Origin: Wickerhamiella versatilis
Lineage: Eukaryota
Length of the DNA: 64,000 bases
Reading direction: 5' to 3'
Assembly (NCBI GenBank): GCA_030867685.1
Contig: JAQOWU010000008.1
Location: forward strand, 2,108,001 to 2,172,000
The position numbers and the translations under genes are program-made. This document shows, piece by piece, positions 16,154-52,449 of this stretch. The notes below the pieces were generated by a model. The model saw only the letters and a list, made by a program, of their open reading frames with translations. It ran no database searches and was not told where the DNA came from. Each line of letters opens with the position of its first letter. Within the stretch, counting starts at the first letter, position 1.

Positions 16154-17713
16154 TTAATAAAAAAGGATTCCCAAGAGCACAGATAATAAAGCTGCGATCC
16201 CAGTTAACGCTGAGTATCCCAATGTTGAAGGATTAATGAGGTTAGCTGCGATTTCCACTGGCCTAGTCATTTCCTCACCAGTTGACACAGGTAGCAAGGT
16301 TTGAGGACATTCACATGTGTCTGTTGATTCCACTGGCTTCACCATTGCATAACTAAGAGCATCATCTGTGGGGATATTTTCTGATACAGGTTGAAATGTT
16401 GCATTTTCTGATCGATACGATGAGCCCGGACTTTGGGAATTAGCAGGACAATTATATATCGCGAACATCCCTGCGAATGCTAAGACAGACATCAAAACAA
16501 TTGTCTTTTTCAGACTTAATGGGACTAACCTGAGCTTGTAGACCTTCCGAGGCTTAGGAATAATACATGTGTGATCCGGAATGGTCGTGATTTCATTACT
16601 TTTGTCACCGCTCGGAGAGGTTTCAGGTGGTGGGAGGGCTTGGAAGGAGAGGAGAGAATCTCTGTCTTGGTAATGTGACCATTCTTGGGTAAAAAAATCT
16701 CGCGATGAAGATTGCTCAAACATCTTGTGGTCCAGAGGGCTTTGAGTTAGGTGTTCTCTAGAGCCCAGACTCAGACCAAGAATATCCTGATCCTTGCCGT
16801 CACTGTTCGAATCACTTTTTGACGATCCAAAGAATGGATTTTTTGGTGTGCCTTGAAAATGCAATTTCTGATTGGGTGGCGTGTAGGCCAGGTAAGATTG
16901 CCTTTTAGAACTTCCGCGACGTCTTCTCTCAGCATGTTCAGCCAAGGCTGCCAGGCGCCGGGATCTCTCATCGGACTCCAGCTGTTCGCGGAGCCTCCAT
17001 GACATGCTTGATTTCTGGTATGGTGATGATTTCGCCATTTTAACAACTTTTTCTTGAACTGGCACAGTGAAGGGTCGTTCCAATGACGTATGATATATAT
17101 GCAAGTCGCGGTGTAATAATTCTGGCTCAGCTAAAGAGATATTTCCTTGAGATATGGGGGTATCAAGCTTCAATGCATCATCTACATCATCATGTTCCGA
17201 ATATAAAGCATTTTCGCTGAGTGGAATACTCGATTCATCTGAATAGGGCGACGATGCATAATTGCCATTAATCTGATGTTGGCCTTTTTCAATGTCTTGC
17301 ATCAGCGCTAGACTCTTTGAGCTTCCTTGAGAGACGTCACCGTCAAAATGTACGTCTTCCTCATGATTGTATGCCAATTGACGTGCGGCTGAAGGTTCTT
17401 TCTCAGGAAATTGGTGGTCTGCGATTGACCCTTCTCCAGAATGCTCCCACCAATCAACTAGTAGAGAGGTAGCATGGCGTATGGCAGGAGCCTGCTCCTC
17501 TCGTAATTTTTCATTTTTCATTTTCACAAATCTGAGTGCTTCGACAAGAGTATCACGGTGCGTGATCATTCCTCTTGCAATACGCTCAGGCAGAGGACTT
17601 CTTTCAGGTTGGCCAGGAAGAGCTTTTATATGATTCCGAAGTTCTTCATACATATGAGATTCATCGCGTAGCTCAATATTTAAAGCGGCAGAGTCGCGTG
17701 TAACGAAGGACAT
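16154..17713 (-). CDS. Uncharacterised 519-aa membrane protein (N-terminal coiled coil, S/T-P sites, two C-terminal hydrophobic segments)
   Basis: Long ATG-initiated ORF; hydrophobic 'TIVLMSVLAFAGMFAIY' and 'YSALTGIAALLSVLLGILFY'; no family recognised. Confidence 0.75.
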   Translation of the reverse strand: MSFVTRDSAALNIELRDESHMYEELRNHIKALPGQPERSPLPERIARGMITHRDTLVEALRFVKMKNEKLREEQAPAIRHATSLLVDWWEHSGEGSIADHQFPEKEPSAARQLAYNHEEDVHFDGDVSQGSSKSLALMQDIEKGQHQINGNYASSPYSDESSIPLSENALYSEHDDVDDALKLDTPISQGNISLAEPELLHRDLHIYHTSLERPFTVPVQEKVVKMAKSSPYQKSSMSWRLREQLESDERSRRLAALAEHAERRRRGSSKRQSYLAYTPPNQKLHFQGTPKNPFFGSSKSDSNSDGKDQDILGLSLGSREHLTQSPLDHKMFEQSSSRDFFTQEWSHYQDRDSLLSFQALPPPETSPSGDKSNEITTIPDHTCIIPKPRKVYKLRLVPLSLKKTIVLMSVLAFAGMFAIYNCPANSQSPGSSYRSENATFQPVSENIPTDDALSYAMVKPVESTDTCECPQTLLPVSTGEEMTRPVEIAANLINPSTLGYSALTGIAALLSVLLGILFY

Positions 17714-18648: not shown

Positions 18649-20253
18649 ATGTCTGCCGTCGAAGAAAAAACCGGCGATAACGCGGTGCGTTTACAGGATC
18701 ATGGTGAGTCAAATGTGATTGATGCACCACATGAGCTGGCTAAGGAAGAAATTTTACAAACCTACCAGGATCCTGATGAAGTTGTGCGTCAAGGCAACGT
18801 CGATGACCTGGTGACAGAGTGGCTCAACGATCCCGCTCACCCGCGCTTCTGGCCCGCTTGGAAGCGATGGTTTGTGGCTATTAGTTACGCATTATTGCAG
18901 GTATTCGTTATGATCACATCGACTTCCGTCATTTCCGCTGAGTTCCCATCCGTCACATCGCGTGGAAACATCCCGGATAAGTTTCCGAAAACTTCTTCTC
19001 AGGTTGCGGCTCTAGTTCAGTCTATGTTTATCGTCGGTAATACTGTTGGATGTGCATTCCTTGGCCCTTTGTCCGACATCAATGGGCGTAAGTGGGTTTA
19101 CGTTTGCTCCATTGTGCTTTATGCAATTCTTAACATTGGAGCTGCACTTCCCATGAATATGCCAATGCTTGCGATATTCTCGTTCCTCATTGGTACTGCC
19201 GGGTCAACTGCTGCTAGTAATGTTGCTGGTACTATATCTGATCTCTTTGCTGAGACGAACATCCAGTCGCAAGCTATGATGCTTTTTGTGCTTTCAGCTG
19301 ACAGTGGTCCTTCCCTTGGCTCGCCTATAGGAGAGTGGATCGTGAACAATCCAAATATGGGAATGAACTGGTTATTCTGGATCAATGTCATTATAGGAGG
19401 CGCATTCGCCCTAGCTCTTTGCTTTCTTCCAGAGACACTTCCTGCTATTGTTATCGGTGGTAAATACGGTAAGGATGTCATCCAAGCGCTTGGTGCTAAG
19501 AAGAGTGCTTCAGAAGCTATTAAGCAAATATACTTTGTGTCAACCATGGCCTTCAAAGTCCTGCTTATAGAACCAATTGTACTTTCTCTTGCAATTCTTA
19601 ATGGGTTCGCCTACGGTCTACTCTTCCTTGATTTGGACGGAATCACAGATGTTTACAGCGGTATCTATGGTTGGACGACGCAAAGTGCAGATTTGACATT
19701 CCTAAATGCCGTAGTTGGAGCCAGCATTGCCTTCTGCATGATGCCTATCCAAACGTGGCTTTATAAATGGGATGTTTCGAGAAGAGGAGGAGTACGCAGG
19801 CCTGAGGCGCGGTTTTTGATGAACCTTGTAACCGTTTGGGGATTTCCTCTGGGACTTCTCTGGTTCGCGTTTACGATCAAGCCATCAATATCACCCTGGT
19901 CATCTATCGTTGCTGGTGGTGTCTTTAATACTGCAGATCCGATTCTTTGGCTGTCGATGCTCTCATATATCTCCGATTCTTATCCAAGCATTACCGGATC
20001 TGCGATTGCAGCGTTCTTAATTCCTTCTTTCGGTCTTGCGGCTGGCTTTGTACACGTAGGGCTTGTCATGTTTGACCGAATGAGCCCCAGATGGGCCTAT
20101 GCAACTTTAGGCTTCTGCTCCCTGTCGTTCCCAGTAATAACATATATCATATACTTTTTTGGACCGTGGCTCAGAAAGCATTCTCACTATGCTTATTCGA
20201 CAGATAAGAAACCTGATGATAGTAATGAATCTCAGGAGAGCGAAAGCAGTTAA
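18649..20253 (+). CDS. MFS DHA1-family transporter resembling S. pombe Bsu1/Car1 vitamin B6 transporter
   Basis: Multi-TM MFS; 'HPRFWPAWKRW', 'QSMFIVGN..G..FLGPLSDINGRKWVY', 'SNVAGTISDLF', 'LPETL', 'PEARF'. Confidence 0.8.
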   Translation: MSAVEEKTGDNAVRLQDHGESNVIDAPHELAKEEILQTYQDPDEVVRQGNVDDLVTEWLNDPAHPRFWPAWKRWFVAISYALLQVFVMITSTSVISAEFPSVTSRGNIPDKFPKTSSQVAALVQSMFIVGNTVGCAFLGPLSDINGRKWVYVCSIVLYAILNIGAALPMNMPMLAIFSFLIGTAGSTAASNVAGTISDLFAETNIQSQAMMLFVLSADSGPSLGSPIGEWIVNNPNMGMNWLFWINVIIGGAFALALCFLPETLPAIVIGGKYGKDVIQALGAKKSASEAIKQIYFVSTMAFKVLLIEPIVLSLAILNGFAYGLLFLDLDGITDVYSGIYGWTTQSADLTFLNAVVGASIAFCMMPIQTWLYKWDVSRRGGVRRPEARFLMNLVTVWGFPLGLLWFAFTIKPSISPWSSIVAGGVFNTADPILWLSMLSYISDSYPSITGSAIAAFLIPSFGLAAGFVHVGLVMFDRMSPRWAYATLGFCSLSFPVITYIIYFFGPWLRKHSHYAYSTDKKPDDSNESQESESS

Positions 20254-20463
20254 TTTAATATCATTTTCACTGTGGATTTGCTTCATTTTGCCTCTCCTGT
20301 GCTATCTGGAGACAAATAATGCGAAAGAAACATTATAATTCATAGTCATTTTGTAGTTACAGTAATGGTATATATACAGCTATATATAATTCTGAACTAC
20401 TGCGAAGCTCAATTTTTAAGCTACATAATTGCCTTCGCGAGTGTATTAGTAATAAGGTCAACT

Positions 20464-20474
20464 ACGCGACGCGT
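20464..20474. promoter_or_regulatory. Overlapping MCB elements 10 bp upstream of SMC3 ATG
   Basis: ACGCGACGCGT. Confidence 0.65.
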
Positions 20475-20484
20475 CGACCGTCTC

Positions 20485-23400
20485 ATGTCTATTCGGTCAA
20501 TTTCGATTGAAGGATTTACGAGTTACCGAAATAAGACGCAAGTTTTTGGATTGGTCAATGGACTGAATGCTGTTGTAGGACGAAATGGAACTGGTAAATC
20601 TAACTTTTTTGCGGCTGTTCGTTGGCTACTTTCCGGACTTGACGAAGTTCCGGCCGAACAGTTAATTCATGCCCAAGGAAGTAGCAATGAAGCTGCTGTG
20701 GAAATAATAATGGATAATTCTACCAGAAGATTCCCTAATTTTGGCCTGCAAGTTTCTCTGAAGAGAGTACTCTCGATAAAAACTGGTGGAATTCGGTCCG
20801 ATGAATGGTTTATCGATGAAAGGAGGGTTACACGAGCACAAATGGGCGCTCTTCTGGAGGGTGCAGGCTTTACAGGGAACTCGTTTTTCATTGTTCCTCA
20901 GGGGAAGGTTGCTCTACTCGCTACAGCAAAGCCACGGGAGCGCCTTACTGCATTGAGTCAATCTGCTGGGGCAGAGGCTTTCGATAAAAGACAGGTCGCA
21001 GCACAGCAACTACTTGTATCTACAACAGAGCAAACAGAGGCTGCGAAAAGACATCAAGATCACGTCCGAAGTAGGCTGAGTGGCCTTGAAGCTGAGGTTG
21101 AAGACCTTAGTGCTTACTTGGAAGTTTGGAAGGCAAAAAGGGATGCAAATTACGTTGTTTTAGTTCGAGAGAGAGCTAAAATTGATGAGCATCTCACTGA
21201 GGCAGAGTCTGTCCGAAGGACCAGCTTGCAATCGTTGATGGAAGCTCGTCAGCACGCAGAAGAAACAAATGATATCATGCTATCTAAGAGCAATGTCTAC
21301 GATTCGACGCTCTCAGATGTCGAGTTTCTCAAAGAGGAGATTGCAACGGCCGAACGTTTGGTCCATCAGTGCGAACTTGAGGAGCCGCCTGAACTTGCTG
21401 CGGTTACTGAGGATGATACGGTTGATGTTGAAATAGCGGCCCTTTCAGGCATCGCTGAGCATTACACAGAGATCGAGAGCAATCTCGCTTCAGTAAGATT
21501 GAAAATTGATGAGCTTCGGAAAAGTCAGATTGCTGAAGATTCACTACTGGAGGAGATTCGTCTGAAAGAAGCTAGACTCAAACTTCCCAATGCTGTAGCT
21601 TCTATGAATAAAAGAGTCCGAGAGCTTGAAGAGGCTATCAATCAGAGAAAGGAAGCGCGTGATATCACAAAAGAAGGGATATCCACACTCGATGCTGAAC
21701 GAGTGGAAATCTCTCGCGCGTTATCGATCTCACAGGAACGGAAGCAACTGGTTCTTAATCAGTTGAATGAAGCACAGAAAGCTGAATCTGATGCACGCAG
21801 TAGCTTGTCAAAAGCAGAGGCGGAACGATCGCTTCATCACCTGTCCAACCGCAAGGCTTCGCTTGGTGATTCACAGAAGGCACGTTCAGAGGAGCAAGTA
21901 ATAACTAACCTACGGCGATACACAACAATTGGAGGCGCTGCAATCCGTGGACTACGCAACGTTCGTGAGGCAGTGAACGAGCTTCATTTGGAGGATAAAT
22001 ATCACGGATTGTTCGTAGAGTCATTAACATATGGAAGGGATATTTCTATTGCGGTTGATCGTGCTGCTGGGCAGTCGCTATTCACTCACTTGGTTTCTGA
22101 TGTTGAGACGGCAGAACTTCTTCTTAAGGAAGTGTCGAACCGGGGTGGTTTCGCAGCCTTTGCTCCGTTATCAGAATTCAGTCATACCAAATCGACTCCC
22201 TCTATTTCTCCACCTGAACCGTTTGTCAATCTGGTGGATATGGTAGAGTCATCGCCTGAGGCCCGGCCTCTTTTGATATCAGTGCTGGGAAATTATGTTC
22301 TGTGTCCAAGTATAAGCGATGCTGCAAAATGCGCAGATGAACTTGGAAGACCAGGAATCACCATTGAGGGCGATGTAATTGAACCTAATGGTGGGATAAC
22401 TGGTGGCTACAGCGGTCAACATTCAAGTGCAACGTCTGCTATTAGCGAATTCCTCAAAATATTGAGCGAACGTGCTAACTTGGTTAAGGAGGCAAAAACT
22501 CAAGCTCAATTGGCTTCTGATGCGAGCCGCCGAGTGACTGCAGCGCTGAATCAAGTACAGCAATTTTCTGTTGATGTCCAGCGTTTGACGAATTCATCAG
22601 AAACTTTGACATCAGATATACTGCGCTATGAAAGTGATATACAACGAATAGACGGAGATCGCGAACTTCAGGTTGAATCTTTGAACGATCTAGAAACTGC
22701 CATTCAGAATCTTCAAAGGTGCATCGAGATAAGTTCACTAAGTGAACTAAGCCCTGCTGAGAGCGCCCGTCTTGAAGAAGCCAATCGTTCAGTAGAAGCA
22801 CAAAATGCTATAGTGAGTCTTCAAAGAGAAGAGCAAAGATTGACGCATAAACTTAATGAGGCTAAAGAGGCCAAGCGCAAACGAATGCATCTCGAAGCCA
22901 GAAGAGATATCCAGCGCACACAGCTTGAAAATGTCGAAAAACGCTCTGCTGAAGCTACAAAGGCACAACTCCGGACTAAGCAAGCACGACTTCGTCTATC
23001 AGAGCTGCAGAGGCAATTAGATGCTAAAGAAGAGTCATTGAATGGTGCTTCTGAGGCCTTGCAAGATGCCCAGCAACTTTACCGCGAACGTACAAATGAA
23101 ATTGCTAAGGCGGAACGTCTACTTAAACGACGTGATACGCGACTAAAAGCTCTACAAGAGCTTGCAGCAACAAATTCTCATGACAGAGAAGAAATTGGCC
23201 AAGTTTCTCAGTCTGCTTTGACTGGGACGCTTCACTCGGATCTTAGTGACAAGTCACTCGACTCAGAGATCCAGCGACTGGGGAATGAGTTGGACAAATT
23301 TGAGCATGTAAACAAGCGAGCTGCTGAACAGTATGCGAAATATTCTCGAGACTTGGCAGGCCTCGACAGCCGCCAGAGGCAATTAAATGTTGAGAAAGAG

Positions 23401-23913
23401 CGAATTGCCGAGGTGATCAAGCAGTTGTCTGACCAGAAGGAAGACAAACTGAGCCAAGCACTCGCATCCATCTCTGATCATTTTGAAAGAGTTTTTCCTC
23501 GTTTGGTGAGTGGGGGTAAAGGTAAATTGGAGCTCACTGATGGCGGCATTGACTTGAAGGTTCGTTTCCCAGGCGTTCGGCAATACCAGAGGAATGAGGC
23601 CTTATCTGGAGGCCAACAAACCCTATGTGCACTGGCACTAATTTTTGCTGTCCAGTCATGGGATCCTGCGCCATTTTATATATTTGATGAGATTGACGCC
23701 AGCCTTGACGTTGAACACCGCGTCGCCGTTGCACGAGCAATTGCGGATGTCGCGTATGAGAGTAACACGCAAGTGATTTGCACCACGCATCACGAAGAAT
23801 TGGTAAATGTAGCTTCCAGAAGCTTTGGGGTCTCATTTGCTAACGGTCAATCACAGATCGAACAGATCTCTGCAGACTTGGCACGAAAGTTCTGCGAGGC
23901 ATCACGAGCATAA
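20485..23913 (+). CDS. SMC3: Cohesin ATPase Smc3 (divergent); likely start ATG 20485 rather than 20365
   Basis: 'MSIRSISIEGFTSYR', Walker A 'VVGRNGTGKSNFFAAVRW', 'LEGAGFTGNSFFIVPQGKV', hinge 'AAGQSLFTHLV', 'HVNKRAAEQY', 'LSGGQQTLCALALIFAVQ..DPAPFYIFDEIDA'. Confidence 0.92.
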   Translation: MSIRSISIEGFTSYRNKTQVFGLVNGLNAVVGRNGTGKSNFFAAVRWLLSGLDEVPAEQLIHAQGSSNEAAVEIIMDNSTRRFPNFGLQVSLKRVLSIKTGGIRSDEWFIDERRVTRAQMGALLEGAGFTGNSFFIVPQGKVALLATAKPRERLTALSQSAGAEAFDKRQVAAQQLLVSTTEQTEAAKRHQDHVRSRLSGLEAEVEDLSAYLEVWKAKRDANYVVLVRERAKIDEHLTEAESVRRTSLQSLMEARQHAEETNDIMLSKSNVYDSTLSDVEFLKEEIATAERLVHQCELEEPPELAAVTEDDTVDVEIAALSGIAEHYTEIESNLASVRLKIDELRKSQIAEDSLLEEIRLKEARLKLPNAVASMNKRVRELEEAINQRKEARDITKEGISTLDAERVEISRALSISQERKQLVLNQLNEAQKAESDARSSLSKAEAERSLHHLSNRKASLGDSQKARSEEQVITNLRRYTTIGGAAIRGLRNVREAVNELHLEDKYHGLFVESLTYGRDISIAVDRAAGQSLFTHLVSDVETAELLLKEVSNRGGFAAFAPLSEFSHTKSTPSISPPEPFVNLVDMVESSPEARPLLISVLGNYVLCPSISDAAKCADELGRPGITIEGDVIEPNGGITGGYSGQHSSATSAISEFLKILSERANLVKEAKTQAQLASDASRRVTAALNQVQQFSVDVQRLTNSSETLTSDILRYESDIQRIDGDRELQVESLNDLETAIQNLQRCIEISSLSELSPAESARLEEANRSVEAQNAIVSLQREEQRLTHKLNEAKEAKRKRMHLEARRDIQRTQLENVEKRSAEATKAQLRTKQARLRLSELQRQLDAKEESLNGASEALQDAQQLYRERTNEIAKAERLLKRRDTRLKALQELAATNSHDREEIGQVSQSALTGTLHSDLSDKSLDSEIQRLGNELDKFEHVNKRAAEQYAKYSRDLAGLDSRQRQLNVEKERIAEVIKQLSDQKEDKLSQALASISDHFERVFPRLVSGGKGKLELTDGGIDLKVRFPGVRQYQRNEALSGGQQTLCALALIFAVQSWDPAPFYIFDEIDASLDVEHRVAVARAIADVAYESNTQVICTTHHEELVNVASRSFGVSFANGQSQIEQISADLARKFCEASRA

Positions 23914-24148
23914 ATTTATGCTATTCCATTTATATATTCTTAGGTTTTAAAGCCCATTATGAGAGCTTCATCTATAACCAACTATTACATTCGAACTTTT
24001 GCTCTGACCCTGCAGGGGGATGTTGATCAGAGGGGTTCTTGAAATAAACTACCTCTGGGACTACAATGGGTAACAAATTATAAGCTTGGAATAGAACCTA
24101 CCTAATTTTGCCACTAAATTTATTCACGATAATTAGGACCCCAAATCT

Positions 24149-24231
24149 ACGCGTGTGACCTCCTAGATAAATTACAAGACAGAATAAGGAATGCATAGGG
24201 TTGGGAAGACGTTAACATAGCGCGTACGCGT
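24149..24231. promoter_or_regulatory. MCB cluster upstream of the NRM1-like gene
   Basis: ACGCGT 24149, GCGCGT 24220, ACGCGT 24226. Confidence 0.6.
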
Positions 24232-24448
24232 CATACGCAATGATGCTTCAAAGCGCAACTAAAATGCGTCTTCAGGTTACTTTATGTAGTCTACACGAGG
24301 AAATAACAAAAAAAGAATATTATGGTTCTCCCCCACGGATGTGATCATATTGAACAGGGTTAGGGCGTTCCCTGGAATTTGTAGCGCGGGATGAGCAAAT
24401 AGATATATACCCTAGCATCCCCATTCACGTTCCCAGCAGATAACGTGC

Positions 24449-39797: not shown

Positions 39798-40847
39798 ATG
39801 GAATCGGGTGCTGAAGCCAGGTTCATTGTGGTTTTGCCCATACCGCGTAAAAGAAGGAGAAAAGAAGTGGACTATAGAGAAATTTTAGATGGGTCACGTC
39901 GGTCCCGTGGTCGAAACAGTAATATTGAGTCTTGGACTGATTCTGAACCAGAATCTGGCTCCGATAACTTTTCAGATTTGGGTTCTCCAGGATTAGAGGA
40001 ACAACAGGATGTGCAGTTTAACCCATTTGGTGATGAGGCATTTCTTAATGATGATTTGATTCCTCTGCCAAGACCTCCATTGACTGCAGACCAGAAATGT
40101 CAGGCGCGTATGGCGGAGAATGTTCAAATGGATATTAACTCTGGACTTGATTTCCTGGATGACTTTAGTGAGAGCATAATCAGTTATACAAACCTCCAGG
40201 ATCAGCGCTTATCCTGGAGTGCCGAACAAAAAAGTATTCTTGTTACACTTGTCGCTAGGAAAGGCATCAGGGCTTTACCAGCCATTGCAGCACGGACAGG
40301 AAAATCCTTAATTGAATGCCAAGCATATTTAGACCTGCTCAATGCAGGATGCAATGCTTCTGTGCAAATAATTGACAAAAAATGCATACCGGCTGCTATC
40401 GAAGTGCCGGAGGAAGATCTGGAGAGCTCAATTGGAAGCGACAATGAAGACTTTGTTGGATATTGCGAGTCTAATGAGGATGGCCTTATAAACTTATCAT
40501 ATATTCTGAAGAACTGCCGACAAATATGGCCTTATTCCAGTACTAGGTGCTTGAAAATAGCGGCAAGTTCTGTCGTAAGATTTTACGTTAAGAGGTTACT
40601 ACAAACCATCATACGCACCTCGAGACGTCGAAAAGATCAAAGGAGGTGGACAGTAAGGGAAGAAGATGTTATAGCAGCTATCGATAAGACCGGAAATCCA
40701 GACACGTTCCATAATCTTGCTGAAGTCTTGTCCGATAGTGATTTGGAATTGATAACAGACAGTAACATTGATACAGGCTCGGATAGCTCCATGTTATCTG
40801 AGTTAAACGAAAGCGACTTGGAAAATTTCCAAGGGGACCAAAACTGA
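39798..40847 (+). CDS. RRN5: RNA polymerase I UAF subunit Rrn5
   Basis: SANT/Myb-like 'WSAEQKSILVTLVARKG..LPAIAART.KSLIECQAYLDLL', 'IPAAIEV', histone-fold-like 'VKRLLQTII..VREEDVIAAI'. Confidence 0.75.
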   Translation: MESGAEARFIVVLPIPRKRRRKEVDYREILDGSRRSRGRNSNIESWTDSEPESGSDNFSDLGSPGLEEQQDVQFNPFGDEAFLNDDLIPLPRPPLTADQKCQARMAENVQMDINSGLDFLDDFSESIISYTNLQDQRLSWSAEQKSILVTLVARKGIRALPAIAARTGKSLIECQAYLDLLNAGCNASVQIIDKKCIPAAIEVPEEDLESSIGSDNEDFVGYCESNEDGLINLSYILKNCRQIWPYSSTRCLKIAASSVVRFYVKRLLQTIIRTSRRRKDQRRWTVREEDVIAAIDKTGNPDTFHNLAEVLSDSDLELITDSNIDTGSDSSMLSELNESDLENFQGDQN

Positions 40848-42937: not shown

Positions 42938-44290
42938 TCACTGTGCATCTCTGACAGTGGATACATGAGTTGGCGTAGCCGGGTGTGACGCGTCTTCAGT
43001 GTCAGACCCAATGGCTTCATCTTGGTCTACTTGTAAATGCTGTTTGTTGCTTTCCGCTTCCTGCCTCTGTCGTGCCGCTGGTTGTGATTTCTCACGTGCT
43101 AGTTTCTCAGGCTCAATACGATGTCTCTGAGAAACACGCCGCTTCTTTGTTTCGTCATTAAGTTGGATGCTTTCAGTAGAAGGTGTCCATGAAGGAAAAG
43201 AGAGCCTGATCATGCTCCTTTTACGGGGACTTGGTGAAATAGGATCGTGTACTGTACGCTCATGCTTAGCCTTTTTTGGTGTCGTAGGTTCACTTGCACG
43301 CGAGTTAGATATAGGAGCTTTGGCCTTTTCCATTGAATTTCGGATTCTAGCTCTTTTGGAATCTTCTTTATTCTGATTTGCTACAAGTGCATCCACAAGT
43401 GCATTAGACTGCTCAAGATGATTAGAGATTTTACTTCTCCTTAGTCTCCGAGCAGGCTTTTGTGGTTTCTGTGAAGCATATGCCACACCGCGAGCCTTAG
43501 AAAAAAGCGATTCACAAGTGTCTCGTGCAAGACTCTTGTAGTTCGGCAATATGACCTGGGTGACAAAGTCCCATACATGATCAGTTTCGCCATAGTCCAG
43601 AGCTTGCCAGATGCACAGCCGAGCAAAATGTTCATATATTAGACCTTCAGCTTCCGGTGGTAGAGCCTCCAACTTCACTATACTTTCAAGCTCTAACATT
43701 AATACAATTTGCAACTGAGTGTCTTGACGCACTAGCAGACGCTTAGCCTCCAGACCGGGGTGTATACTCATCCAATCATACAAACGAGCCTCAATATGTT
43801 CATCCTGAGGATTTTCCCAAAATTCGTCAAGCTCAATGGGTGCTTTTAGCATCCAGACCAATTCCTGAGCATAGGATTCGCGATCCCAGCTAGTTCGAGC
43901 TCTGCAAAGGGCCCTTCTGACAAAAGAATAGATAGATAAATCACCAAAGAGTACTTGCTCCCTCATTACTTCAAGGTAGTCGTCATCCACCTCAGGGTTC
44001 ATATCCACATTATTACCAATTTCTGGTAGATTAACACGGTCAGGCTCAATTATTATTGGTTTTGAGTCAATTTTAGCGTTATCGTGGGTTTGATGAATCC
44101 ATTGGTTAGAGTTTTTGACCGTGCACACGGCAATCCATTTCCGGTATCCTATCGACAGGTTGCCTTGATCCTCATCAAGCCAGATTTGACTATCCTTCTC
44201 TTCTGTGGGAGTGTTAATAAATCGCCAGAATGGCCAATCTGGTAACGACCCCAAGTCTACGCGTTCGCGTGCGAGACGGAGGCGTGCCAT
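42938..44290 (-). CDS. SLD3: DNA replication initiation factor Sld3 (first ATG 44290)
   Basis: 'RQDTQLQIVLMLEL', 'FARLCIWQAL', 'FVTQVILPNY' Sld3 core; C-terminal CDK-type sites TTPKK, SPSPRKR, ATP. Confidence 0.8.
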   Translation of the reverse strand: MARLRLARERVDLGSLPDWPFWRFINTPTEEKDSQIWLDEDQGNLSIGYRKWIAVCTVKNSNQWIHQTHDNAKIDSKPIIIEPDRVNLPEIGNNVDMNPEVDDDYLEVMREQVLFGDLSIYSFVRRALCRARTSWDRESYAQELVWMLKAPIELDEFWENPQDEHIEARLYDWMSIHPGLEAKRLLVRQDTQLQIVLMLELESIVKLEALPPEAEGLIYEHFARLCIWQALDYGETDHVWDFVTQVILPNYKSLARDTCESLFSKARGVAYASQKPQKPARRLRRSKISNHLEQSNALVDALVANQNKEDSKRARIRNSMEKAKAPISNSRASEPTTPKKAKHERTVHDPISPSPRKRSMIRLSFPSWTPSTESIQLNDETKKRRVSQRHRIEPEKLAREKSQPAARQRQEAESNKQHLQVDQDEAIGSDTEDASHPATPTHVSTVRDAQ

Positions 44291-51957: not shown

Positions 51958-52449
51958 TCAAGCGGATGAGTTGTTTCCAGCCCATCGACCCCAGCGGCCC
52001 CAACGGCCTCGACCACGGCCACGGCCGCGGCCCCTACCTCTTCCCCTGCCACGGCCAGGACCACCCAAGCCAGCTGTGGCTGGTTTTATAATGAGTCTCC
52101 TTTCATGCTCCAAAGTTTGCCAGCGGCTTTGTATGAATCGAAGTCCATGGAGAACATCATCCACAAGAGCCTTCCATTCTACAGTATCATCAAGATCAGC
52201 ATGACGCATTTTTTCCACCGTGGCCAGACTATGTTTAACACTTTCTTCTATTTCTGAAGGCACATCAACTCTCGAGTCATTATTTTCATCGCTTTGTTTG
52301 TTCTCTAACGAATCCGATTGCGTGCGTGCACGCTTAGCAGGAGGAGCATCTGTTTCATTCTTTGATATTGAAGAGTCAGCAGCTGCATAGGGAGGACCAT
52401 AAGATGATGGTCCAAATCCGCTTCCTTGACTTGACTCAGTCTCAGCCAT
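51958..52449 (-). CDS. Hypothetical 163-aa protein with NLS-like PPAKRAR and C-terminal RG/GRW repeat
   Basis: ATG-initiated ORF, helical middle, (GR)n followed by GRW GRW GRW. Confidence 0.65.
   Translation of the reverse strand: MAETESSQGSGFGPSSYGPPYAAADSSISKNETDAPPAKRARTQSDSLENKQSDENNDSRVDVPSEIEESVKHSLATVEKMRHADLDDTVEWKALVDDVLHGLRFIQSRWQTLEHERRLIIKPATAGLGGPGRGRGRGRGRGRGRGRGRWGRWGRWAGNNSSA

Follow-up and report, generated by a model that had tools for sequence, protein, structure and literature searches.

Acetylation of a lysine pair in the cohesin subunit Smc3 is treated as a near-universal step in the establishment of sister-chromatid cohesion. Budding yeast cannot do without it, and disease results from defects of the human enzyme. 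In the canonical switch, Eco1 acetylates the acceptor lysines (K112/K113 in Saccharomyces cerevisiae, K105/K106 in human) during S phase, which blocks Wapl-Pds5 release, and Hos1 resets the state. Here we describe the Smc3 gene in a 64,000-nucleotide stretch of Wickerhamiella versatilis DNA (GenBank assembly GCA_030867685.1, contig JAQOWU010000008.1, positions 2,108,001 to 2,172,000 of the forward strand), hereafter the window, in whose own numbering all coordinates are given. Both acceptor lysines are replaced in the encoded protein. We consider it fairly probable that this is a true Smc3 orthologue unable to use the canonical acetylation switch, the pair having been lost across the whole Wickerhamiella/Starmerella (W/S) clade, and that it is a natural analogue of the RQ and NN laboratory alleles.

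The closest described systems include laboratory alleles and the cohesin of Tetrahymena. Releasing activity in S. cerevisiae requires unmodified K112/K113, and the QQ double substitution stops N-Scc1 dissociation as strongly as deletion of wpl1 (PMC4769318). The RR double substitution is lethal in that species (PMC4769318, PMC4279223), and deletion of wpl1 rescues eco1 deletion, K113R and RR (PMC4279223). Viable laboratory alleles exist (PMC4279223, PMC5156541), and cohesin without acetylatable lysines can therefore support viability. Tetrahymena cohesin works without detectable Eco1, Pds5 or WAPL (PMC6208729), a 'streamlined' cohesin that sets a precedent for cohesion independent of that cycle of acetylation. 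Tetrahymena is a ciliate with nuclear dualism, and its case rests on absent regulator genes, whereas the present one rests on an absent acceptor site. The W/S clade is described as a faster-evolving lineage with a reduced set of genome-stability genes, PDS1 and REC8 being among the absences (PMC12629084). Cohesin without the cycle, in Tetrahymena, and non-acetylatable alleles made at the bench are known already; the clade-wide loss of the pair is new here. In the library searched, we found no literature on cohesin together with Wickerhamiella or Starmerella, and a eukaryote-wide SMC survey preprint contains no word beginning with 'acetyl'.

The acceptor region of the window protein is laid out as follows.

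20485..23913, forward strand: open reading frame (ORF) of the probable Smc3 orthologue, 1142 amino acids plus stop, intron-less, supported by its translation, Pfam, PDB matches and RNA reads.
20749..20814, forward strand: predicted beta-hairpin, residues 89-110, which bears the acceptor pair in canonical Smc3; AlphaFold2 (AF2) model, predicted local distance difference test score (pLDDT) 83-89.
20773..20787, forward strand: five-residue insertion S97-I-K99-T-G101, with K99 at 20779-20781; a gap in Psm3 and human SMC3.
20794..20799, forward strand: R104-S105, positional homologues of the Eco1 acceptor lysines in phmmer and MAFFT alignments.

The codons at 20761-20808 on the forward strand (aag aga gta ctc tcg ata aaa act ggt gga att cgg tcc gat gaa tgg) encode K93-R-V-L-S-I-K99-T-G-G-I-R104-S105-D106-E-W, and the peptide quoted in the initial annotation, LKRVLSIKTGGIRSDEWFIDERRVT, is residues 92-116. 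That annotation, made from the sequence alone, had proposed that both acceptor lysines are replaced, by arginine and serine, and that a short insertion carries one lysine, and the phmmer and MAFFT alignments agree with it on both counts. Specifically, phmmer pairs 'rvlsiktggirsdewf' with 'rti-----glkkdey' of Schizosaccharomyces pombe Psm3 and 'rvi-----gakkdqyf' of human SMC3. R104 and S105 align to K-K (G-I-R104-S105-D106 to canonical G-L-K-K-D), and D106 is the conserved aspartate. Three MAFFT alignments, one of 151 N-termini (--auto), one of 145 full-length rows and one of 20 N-termini (L-INS-i), yielded this register too, which is anchored by R94 (invariant, and equal to S. cerevisiae R107 by residue offset), by D106 (20800-20802) and by the E-W-F flank. 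Among the 151 sequences, the insertion at S97-G101 occurs only in the window protein and its relative P0003, where it reads S-M-K-P-G. The canonical Smc3 proteins of S. cerevisiae, S. pombe (Psm3) and human (7ogt_B, 6yuf_C, 6wg3_B) share with the window protein the head, coil and hinge, the ATPase motifs, R94 and D106; the window protein differs in having R104/S105 for K-K, a longer hairpin and a length of 1142 versus about 1200 residues. That the canonical acetylation switch is inoperable at this site, as the annotation also inferred, follows directly from the lysine replacement.

The loss extends well beyond this copy. An exhaustive phmmer search over 1.84 billion cluster representatives returned P0003 at 68% identity, followed by P0242, P0243, P0244 and P0245 at 30-32%. 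P0242 is the Wickerhamiella sorbophila protein XP_024663381.1, named sudA (Smc3) at NCBI, and P0525 is the Starmerella bacillaris protein GMM49756.1, named 'cohesin subunit' at NCBI, which lies in the 90% cluster of P0259. A FastTree phylogeny of the 145 representatives of at least 1000 amino acids (P0301, P0321, P0353, P0357, P0375 and P0379, being shorter, were dropped) united 11 of them in one clade with a Shimodaira-Hasegawa (SH)-like support of 100. The initial annotation had proposed aligning Smc3 heads across the clade; in this alignment, none of the 11 representatives, W. sorbophila and S. bacillaris included, carries lysine in either column of the canonical pair. The loop sequences of the 11 are G-I-R-S-D, G-L-R-A-D, S-P-R-N-D (W. 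sorbophila), S-P-R-A-D, S-L-N-R-D, T-P-S-S-D, V-N-G-G-D, G-K-S-E-D, V-N-T-N-S (S. bacillaris), V-R-T-T-S and D-N-P-K-E. P0278 has a lysine in the D column, where a one-residue alignment shift would give it one acceptor, and P0257 has a lysine directly preceding the pair. The pair is also gone in further clade proteins, namely P0410 (S-P-R-S-D), P0525 and the near-identical mates P0391, P0392, P0393 and P0396. Arginine stands at the first pair position in 6 of 12 clade proteins.

Outside the clade the site is well kept: the 134 full-length Smc3 rows comprise 89 with K-K, 31 with x-K, 10 with K-x and 4 with neither, so that at least one lysine is present in 130 of 134. Two of the four rows lacking both are N-terminally truncated, and the others are Hesseltinella vesiculosa and P0292. 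In 133 canonical rows, 108 columns reach a conservation of at least 85%, and just two of them have no clade member (0 of 11) that keeps the residue: the column of the second acceptor lysine and one with a conservative change of L to I/V. No clade-wide substitute lysine was found, as all columns where lysine occurs in 7 or more of the 11 clade members are lysine-rich in canonical Smc3 too. The acceptor loop is hypervariable inside the clade, and this, with the lack of a clade-wide new lysine, is in keeping with a function that was lost rather than moved at clade level. At least 8 of the 11 representatives, W. sorbophila and S. bacillaris among them, have neither an insertion nor a loop lysine. 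On these alignments, the pair loss is common to the whole clade rather than peculiar to the window copy, which argues against the specialised second SMC3 that the initial annotation offered as its alternative. Among faster-evolving Saccharomycotina (the W/S clade, Hanseniaspora and a Pichiales subclade), the long branches of the clade Smc3 fit the high rates of W/S yeasts, and Pichia inconspicua Smc3 (P0286) retains K-K.

Some observations beside this survey may be recorded. Among the 134 representatives outside the clade, the only full-length losses are P0274 (Hesseltinella vesiculosa ORX50243.1, G-L-S-L-D) and P0292 (G-G-S-V-D, with an insertion of its own), and the first lysine alone is kept in 10 others, for example in Phytomonas with K-Q. 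A word-indexed search with the window protein was rejected as a homologue finder: it gave one close relative, below which came Eurotiales Smc3 with 26-29% identity along the whole length, and it missed W. sorbophila. The same search gave P0080 as a local match, at 36% identity over 23%.

The initial annotation had taken the gene for Smc3, and this assignment is well supported. Pfam places SMC_N over residues 3-1121 (3.6e-47) and SMC_hinge over residues 505-615 (5.8e-13), and the ten top phmmer matches among all PDB chains are all Smc3, the best being S. pombe 6yuf_C (1.4e-80), human 7w1m_B (1.6e-80) and S. cerevisiae 7ogt_B (4.2e-72). Other SMC classes follow at E values of 1.3e-47 (prokaryote Smc), 6.6e-34 (Smc2), 4.6e-21 (Smc1) and 6.1e-15 (Smc4); in bits, this one-directional test from query to PDB gives 274.7 for Smc3 versus 165.6, 120.3, 77.7 and 57.5, respectively. 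The S. bacillaris protein P0525 ranks the SMC classes identically in the same kind of search. The catalytic and hinge elements are as follows.

20578..20601, forward strand: Walker A, G32-S39 with K38; N34, G35, G37 and K38 are invariant in 70 aligned Smc3 and kept in 11/11 clade members.
21997..22329, forward strand: hinge domain, residues 505-615 (Pfam PF06470, 5.8e-13).
23602..23616, forward strand: signature L1040-S-G-G-Q1044; G1042, G1043 and Q1044 are invariant, and S, G, G and Q are present in 11/11 clade members.
23674..23709, forward strand: Walker B and D-loop, F1064-D1075; D1068, E1069, D1071 and D1075 are invariant, in 11/11 clade members.

The ATPase motifs are complete (K38, Q-loop Q139, S1041-G-G-Q1044, D1068-E1069 and D1075), and their columns are kept in all 11 clade members. 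The AF2 model (mean pLDDT 80.8) comprises two head halves, a long coiled coil and a hinge. With the full-length model, all Foldseek matches were SMC-type, and target-normalised template modelling (TM) scores were 0.71-0.77 against human SMC3 (7w1m_B, 6wge_B) and the isolated SMC3 head, the head-domain chains being 8roh_A, 8roi_A, 8roj_A and 8rol_A. Full-length Foldseek was rejected as a discriminator of SMC class, as a condensin chain came first and coiled-coil geometry governs the global ranking. The window protein is an ATPase of the Smc3 type and is apparently functional. Two other head positions are unusual. A57 (20653-20655) occupies a column that is arginine in 86% of canonical Smc3, with alanine here, methionine in P0003 and arginine in 3 of 11 clade members; we take this column to belong to the SMC 'arginine finger' region. 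Near the C-terminal head, T-T-H-H with H1102-H1103 (23788-23793) replaces a T-T-F motif whose phenylalanine is found in 96% of canonical rows; histidine takes its place in P0003 and the window protein alone, and phenylalanine is retained by the 9 remaining clade members.

Predicted structures show how the insertion alters the hairpin. In the AF2 model of the window protein the strands span residues 89-98 and 104-110, with the turn K99-T-G-G-I103. The canonical Saccharomycotina-type control P0253 (pLDDT 83.7) has strands at 94-101 and 106-110 and a four-residue turn, G102-L-K104-K105, the K-K pair closing the hairpin tip in this model. This comparison is one of DSSP strings of AF2 models. The five-residue insertion would therefore make the hairpin longer by two residues per strand and place R104-S105 in the stem. 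The initial annotation had allowed that the SIKTG lysine might be the structural equivalent of K113, which the models do not bear out, as K99 instead heads a new turn; on the models, K99 is a tip lysine and not a positional or geometric equivalent of K113.

Comparison with the bench alleles suggests how such a cohesin might work. The natural R-S, R-A and R-N pairs share with the RQ and RN alleles a pattern of arginine first and a small neutral residue second, and R-N-D of W. sorbophila corresponds by position to K112R,K113N. In the mechanism that we favour, the canonical switch at the Smc3 pair would be unable to operate anywhere in the clade. Clade cohesin would probably be refractory to Wapl-type release by default, like the acetyl-mimic K112R,K113Q, QQ and NN proteins, because releasing activity in S. 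cerevisiae needs unmodified K112/K113. Arginine at the first position would retain positive charge for contact with DNA and the loader. Cohesion could be established without Eco1 acting at the Smc3 pair, and in this clade it is probably secured in some other way. The laboratory alleles (RQ, QQ, RR, psm3-RR and psm3-NN) are single-step changes in a wild-type complex and are costly, whereas the natural clade Smc3 proteins differ by hundreds of further substitutions, which may have a compensating effect.

A wider claim, that the whole W/S clade runs cohesin without the Smc3 acetylation cycle and that K-K loss removed the need for Eco1 at Smc3, for Wapl release and for Hos1 resetting, is tentative, and we think it possible without expecting it. 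If true, a 'streamlined' cohesin, resistant to release by default, would be on record for a fungal lineage for the first time. The R-N, R-S, R-A, T-N and other Smc3 proteins of the clade would then count as acetyl-mimic or acetyl-null alleles made by nature, with compensating changes readable from sequence; a candidate for such a change is the proline found in 10 of 11 members at the hinge-channel position of K668. Culturable free-living yeasts without the acceptor site, several of them industrial, constitute a natural experiment on the Eco1-Wapl-Pds5-Hos1 circuit. Such an experiment would show which parts of the circuit are dispensable, how their loss is compensated, and whether loss of this control is linked to the high evolutionary rate and reduced genome-stability gene set of W/S yeasts. 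Naturally evolved 'acetyl-mimic' Smc3 sequences could also be placed in model yeasts.

Several points weigh against an orthologue that has lost its switch throughout the clade, and they are taken here together with the explanations that they favour. The QQ substitution reduces loading (PMC4769318), and smc3-K112R,K113Q restores viability and not cohesion (PMC4279223); compensation would therefore be needed in the clade. In S. pombe, psm3-RR is viable though eso1 is essential (PMC5156541), and pair loss therefore need not mean loss of Eco1. The main text of PMC12629084 has no mention of ECO1, RAD61, PDS5, HOS1, SMC3 or 'cohesi', and thus names neither ECO1 nor RAD61 among the W/S losses; its supplementary tables may bear on the matter. 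The S. pombe result and this silence fit neutral decay of the pair in a hypermutator lineage that keeps Eco1, Wapl, Pds5 and Hos1, these acting through Scc1, Pds5 and other lysines. Such decay would also agree with the other targets of Eco1 (PMC5349539, PMC4279223), with the fast evolution of W/S yeasts (PMC12629084) and with the hypervariable loop, which is expected under relaxed constraint. It differs from our preferred explanation in predicted gene content only, and the 130 of 134 other representatives that hold at least one lysine, fast-evolving lineages included, indicate that drift rarely removes both; we regard it as a serious but doubtful alternative. A different account is that in this sub-lineage the insertion brought K99 to the same hairpin tip, where Eco1 would acetylate it and so keep the switch working in a changed form. 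In the AF2 model K99 stands first in the new turn at the tip, the turn of the hairpin is likewise where the canonical K-K lies, and K99 is kept in the 69%-identical P0003. Its I-K-T context fits the Eco1 preference for an aliphatic residue at P-1 and a polar one at P+1, M-K-P of P0003 fits the K-P/R class, and the substrate is described as a hairpin (PMC5349539). In addition, P0257/P0396 independently gained an 8-residue insertion in this hairpin tip, with a lysine directly preceding the pair. By alignment, the hairpin tip is remodelled twice within the clade, and these independent insertions with lysine hint that a tip lysine may be selected. Yet insertion and loop lysine are absent from at least 8 of 11 clade representatives, so that the pair was lost before any new lysine arose; the Eco1 motif is loose, and K99 is conserved in two sequences only, which at 69% identity is weak evidence. 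We hold relocation of the acceptor to be rather unlikely but a live rival: within the sub-lineage of the window, an acceptor may have been gained back in the form of K99.

The placement of the clade bears on whether the gene is instead a specialised paralogue, a fast copy doing something else while W/S yeasts keep a canonical K-K-D Smc3 elsewhere. An IQ-TREE analysis (LG+C20 with posterior mean site frequencies, quick search) of 30 chosen rows, comprising 12 clade members, 5 named Saccharomycotina, 10 other eukaryotes and 3 prokaryote Smc sequences as the outgroup, united the 12 clade rows with an SH-like approximate likelihood ratio test (SH-aLRT) value of 98. When rooted by the outgroup, the tree set the clade apart from Saccharomycotina and made it the sister group of all remaining eukaryote Smc3. 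Identity is also low, since window and W. sorbophila Smc3 share 25-30% with every canonical Smc3 and 29.6% with each other, versus 37-49% among canonical yeast and Penicillium Smc3. Both observations speak for a paralogue. The tree program flagged long branches. Summed branch lengths put the tips of the clade at about 1.2-2.6 times the distance that separates the five other Saccharomycotina from the eukaryote Smc3 node; we read the deep placement as long-branch attraction. Forcing the clade together with the five named Saccharomycotina cost 13.9 log-likelihood units, and the approximately unbiased (AU) test did not reject this position, but it came close (p-AU 0.076). Part of the Smc3 divergence is the known genome-wide acceleration of W/S yeasts (PMC12629084). 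An acceleration specific to Smc3, which the figures for Elp3 (82-87%) versus Smc3 (25-30%) had suggested, was toned down, because W/S yeasts evolve fast throughout the genome (PMC12629084) and the constraint on Elp3 is unusually strong. The diversity of the clade resembles that of species orthologues, with 11 clusters at 50% identity and two named genera; NCBI calls the W. sorbophila and S. bacillaris proteins sudA (Smc3) and 'cohesin subunit'; none of the catalytic motifs is damaged; and RNA depth over the gene is ordinary. A word-indexed search with W. sorbophila Smc3 brought up no further Smc3 of that yeast among the best 120 matches, a weak point given the shared-word ranking, and that species' other SMC proteins were unlisted there too, so this is not evidence of absence. 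Given the species-like diversity, intact motifs and ordinary expression, a paralogue is unlikely, and we leave it only a slim chance. An alignment artefact, in which the lysine pair is present but misaligned, might be feared from the indel and the low identity of the region. Four alignments from two programs concur, R94, D106 and the E-W-F flank fix the register, and residues 60-135 contain zero K-K dipeptides; this explanation is next to inconceivable.

A second change lies in the hinge of the proposed orthologue.

22375..22389, forward strand: V631-I-E-P634-N635, hinge-channel positions matching S. cerevisiae R665, K668 and R669, all uncharged here.

Kurze et al. neutralised R665, K668 and R669; the smc3AAA protein alone is viable, and with smc1DD cohesion is abolished, loading is unaffected and K113 acetylation is down five- to six-fold (PMC3025461). 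The mapping of R665 to V631, K668 to P634 and R669 to N635 (alignment columns 1381, 1384 and 1385) was inferred from the spacing of G-D-R-A-D-K-R-G in P0334. In the K668 column, the clade has proline in 10 of 11 members, whereas R/K occurs in 85 of 133 canonical rows and proline in about 3% of them. The hinge positions are not universally basic, as the canonical control P0253 reads G-D-R-A-S-T-Q-G. The hinge change is possibly linked to the pair loss, and we offer it as a lead, not as evidence.

The gene model is consistent with an expressed, intron-less gene starting at ATG 20485 and ending with the stop codon at 23911-23913.

20471..20473, forward strand: apparent transcript 5' end, from RNA reads; it favours ATG 20485 over the in-frame ATG 20365.

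The frame is open upstream to ATG 20365, and the segment 20365-20484 would add 40 residues; this 1182-amino-acid form is the version of Smc3 in the protein collection (P0002). P0003 begins at the same M-S-I-R as ATG 20485, and a start at the M-S-I-R position is common to nearly all aligned Smc3 (L-INS-i, 20 N-termini). Sequencing runs X19, X20, X23 and X24 were compared with 20000-24300; of these, X23 and X24 are RNA reads under the species label of the window, and X19 contributes an RNA-library contig. RNA molecules start at 20473 in X23 and X24, and a contig of X19 starts from 20471, where it is preceded by adapter letters. RNA depth is zero at 20288-20431. The P0003 start, the aligned Smc3 starts and the RNA 5' end concur in favouring ATG 20485 over ATG 20365. 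Reads cover 20432-23887 at about 20-95 per bin (mate columns summed, two raw-read RNA runs), and as they show no joints over this interval, the gene has no intron. The reads are mostly 95-99% identical to 20000-24300 of the window, in 1497 of 1676 cases for X23 and 1467 of 1623 for X24. Many differences occur in every covering read, which suggests that a divergent strain or sister taxon was sequenced; because the RNA strain differs from the window, the empty bin upstream of 20432 may partly reflect divergence. Among the differences listed, beside which there are 118 more, at least one lies in 20761-20808: at position 20793 all covering reads of both RNA runs have C where the window has T, which is synonymous at I103 and is a fixed strain difference.

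The window itself is compact and yeast-like, with 85% covered by ORFs of at least 150 amino acids. No Pfam match (E<=1e-5) to the Eco1, Wapl/Rad61, Pds5 or Hos1 families was obtained in the 30 other window ORFs of at least 150 amino acids, and a tRNA scan of the 64 kb found none. Four ORFs of 163-519 amino acids are without a Pfam family at E<=1e-5, located at 16154-17713 (reverse strand), 39798-40847 (forward strand), 42938-44290 (reverse strand) and 51958-52449 (reverse strand). The remainder of the window is housekeeping, including Elp1, Rad52, Exo84, a CAF-1 subunit, a UvrD-type helicase, a MutS homologue, ThrRS, an MCM, Rpb5, Elp3 and Sec16. The best named match of the window Elp3 is W. 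sorbophila (87%), followed by Blastobotrys, Trichomonascus and Sugiyamaella. The stretch 20000-24300 also turns up in several food-fermentation, food and sediment metagenome runs.

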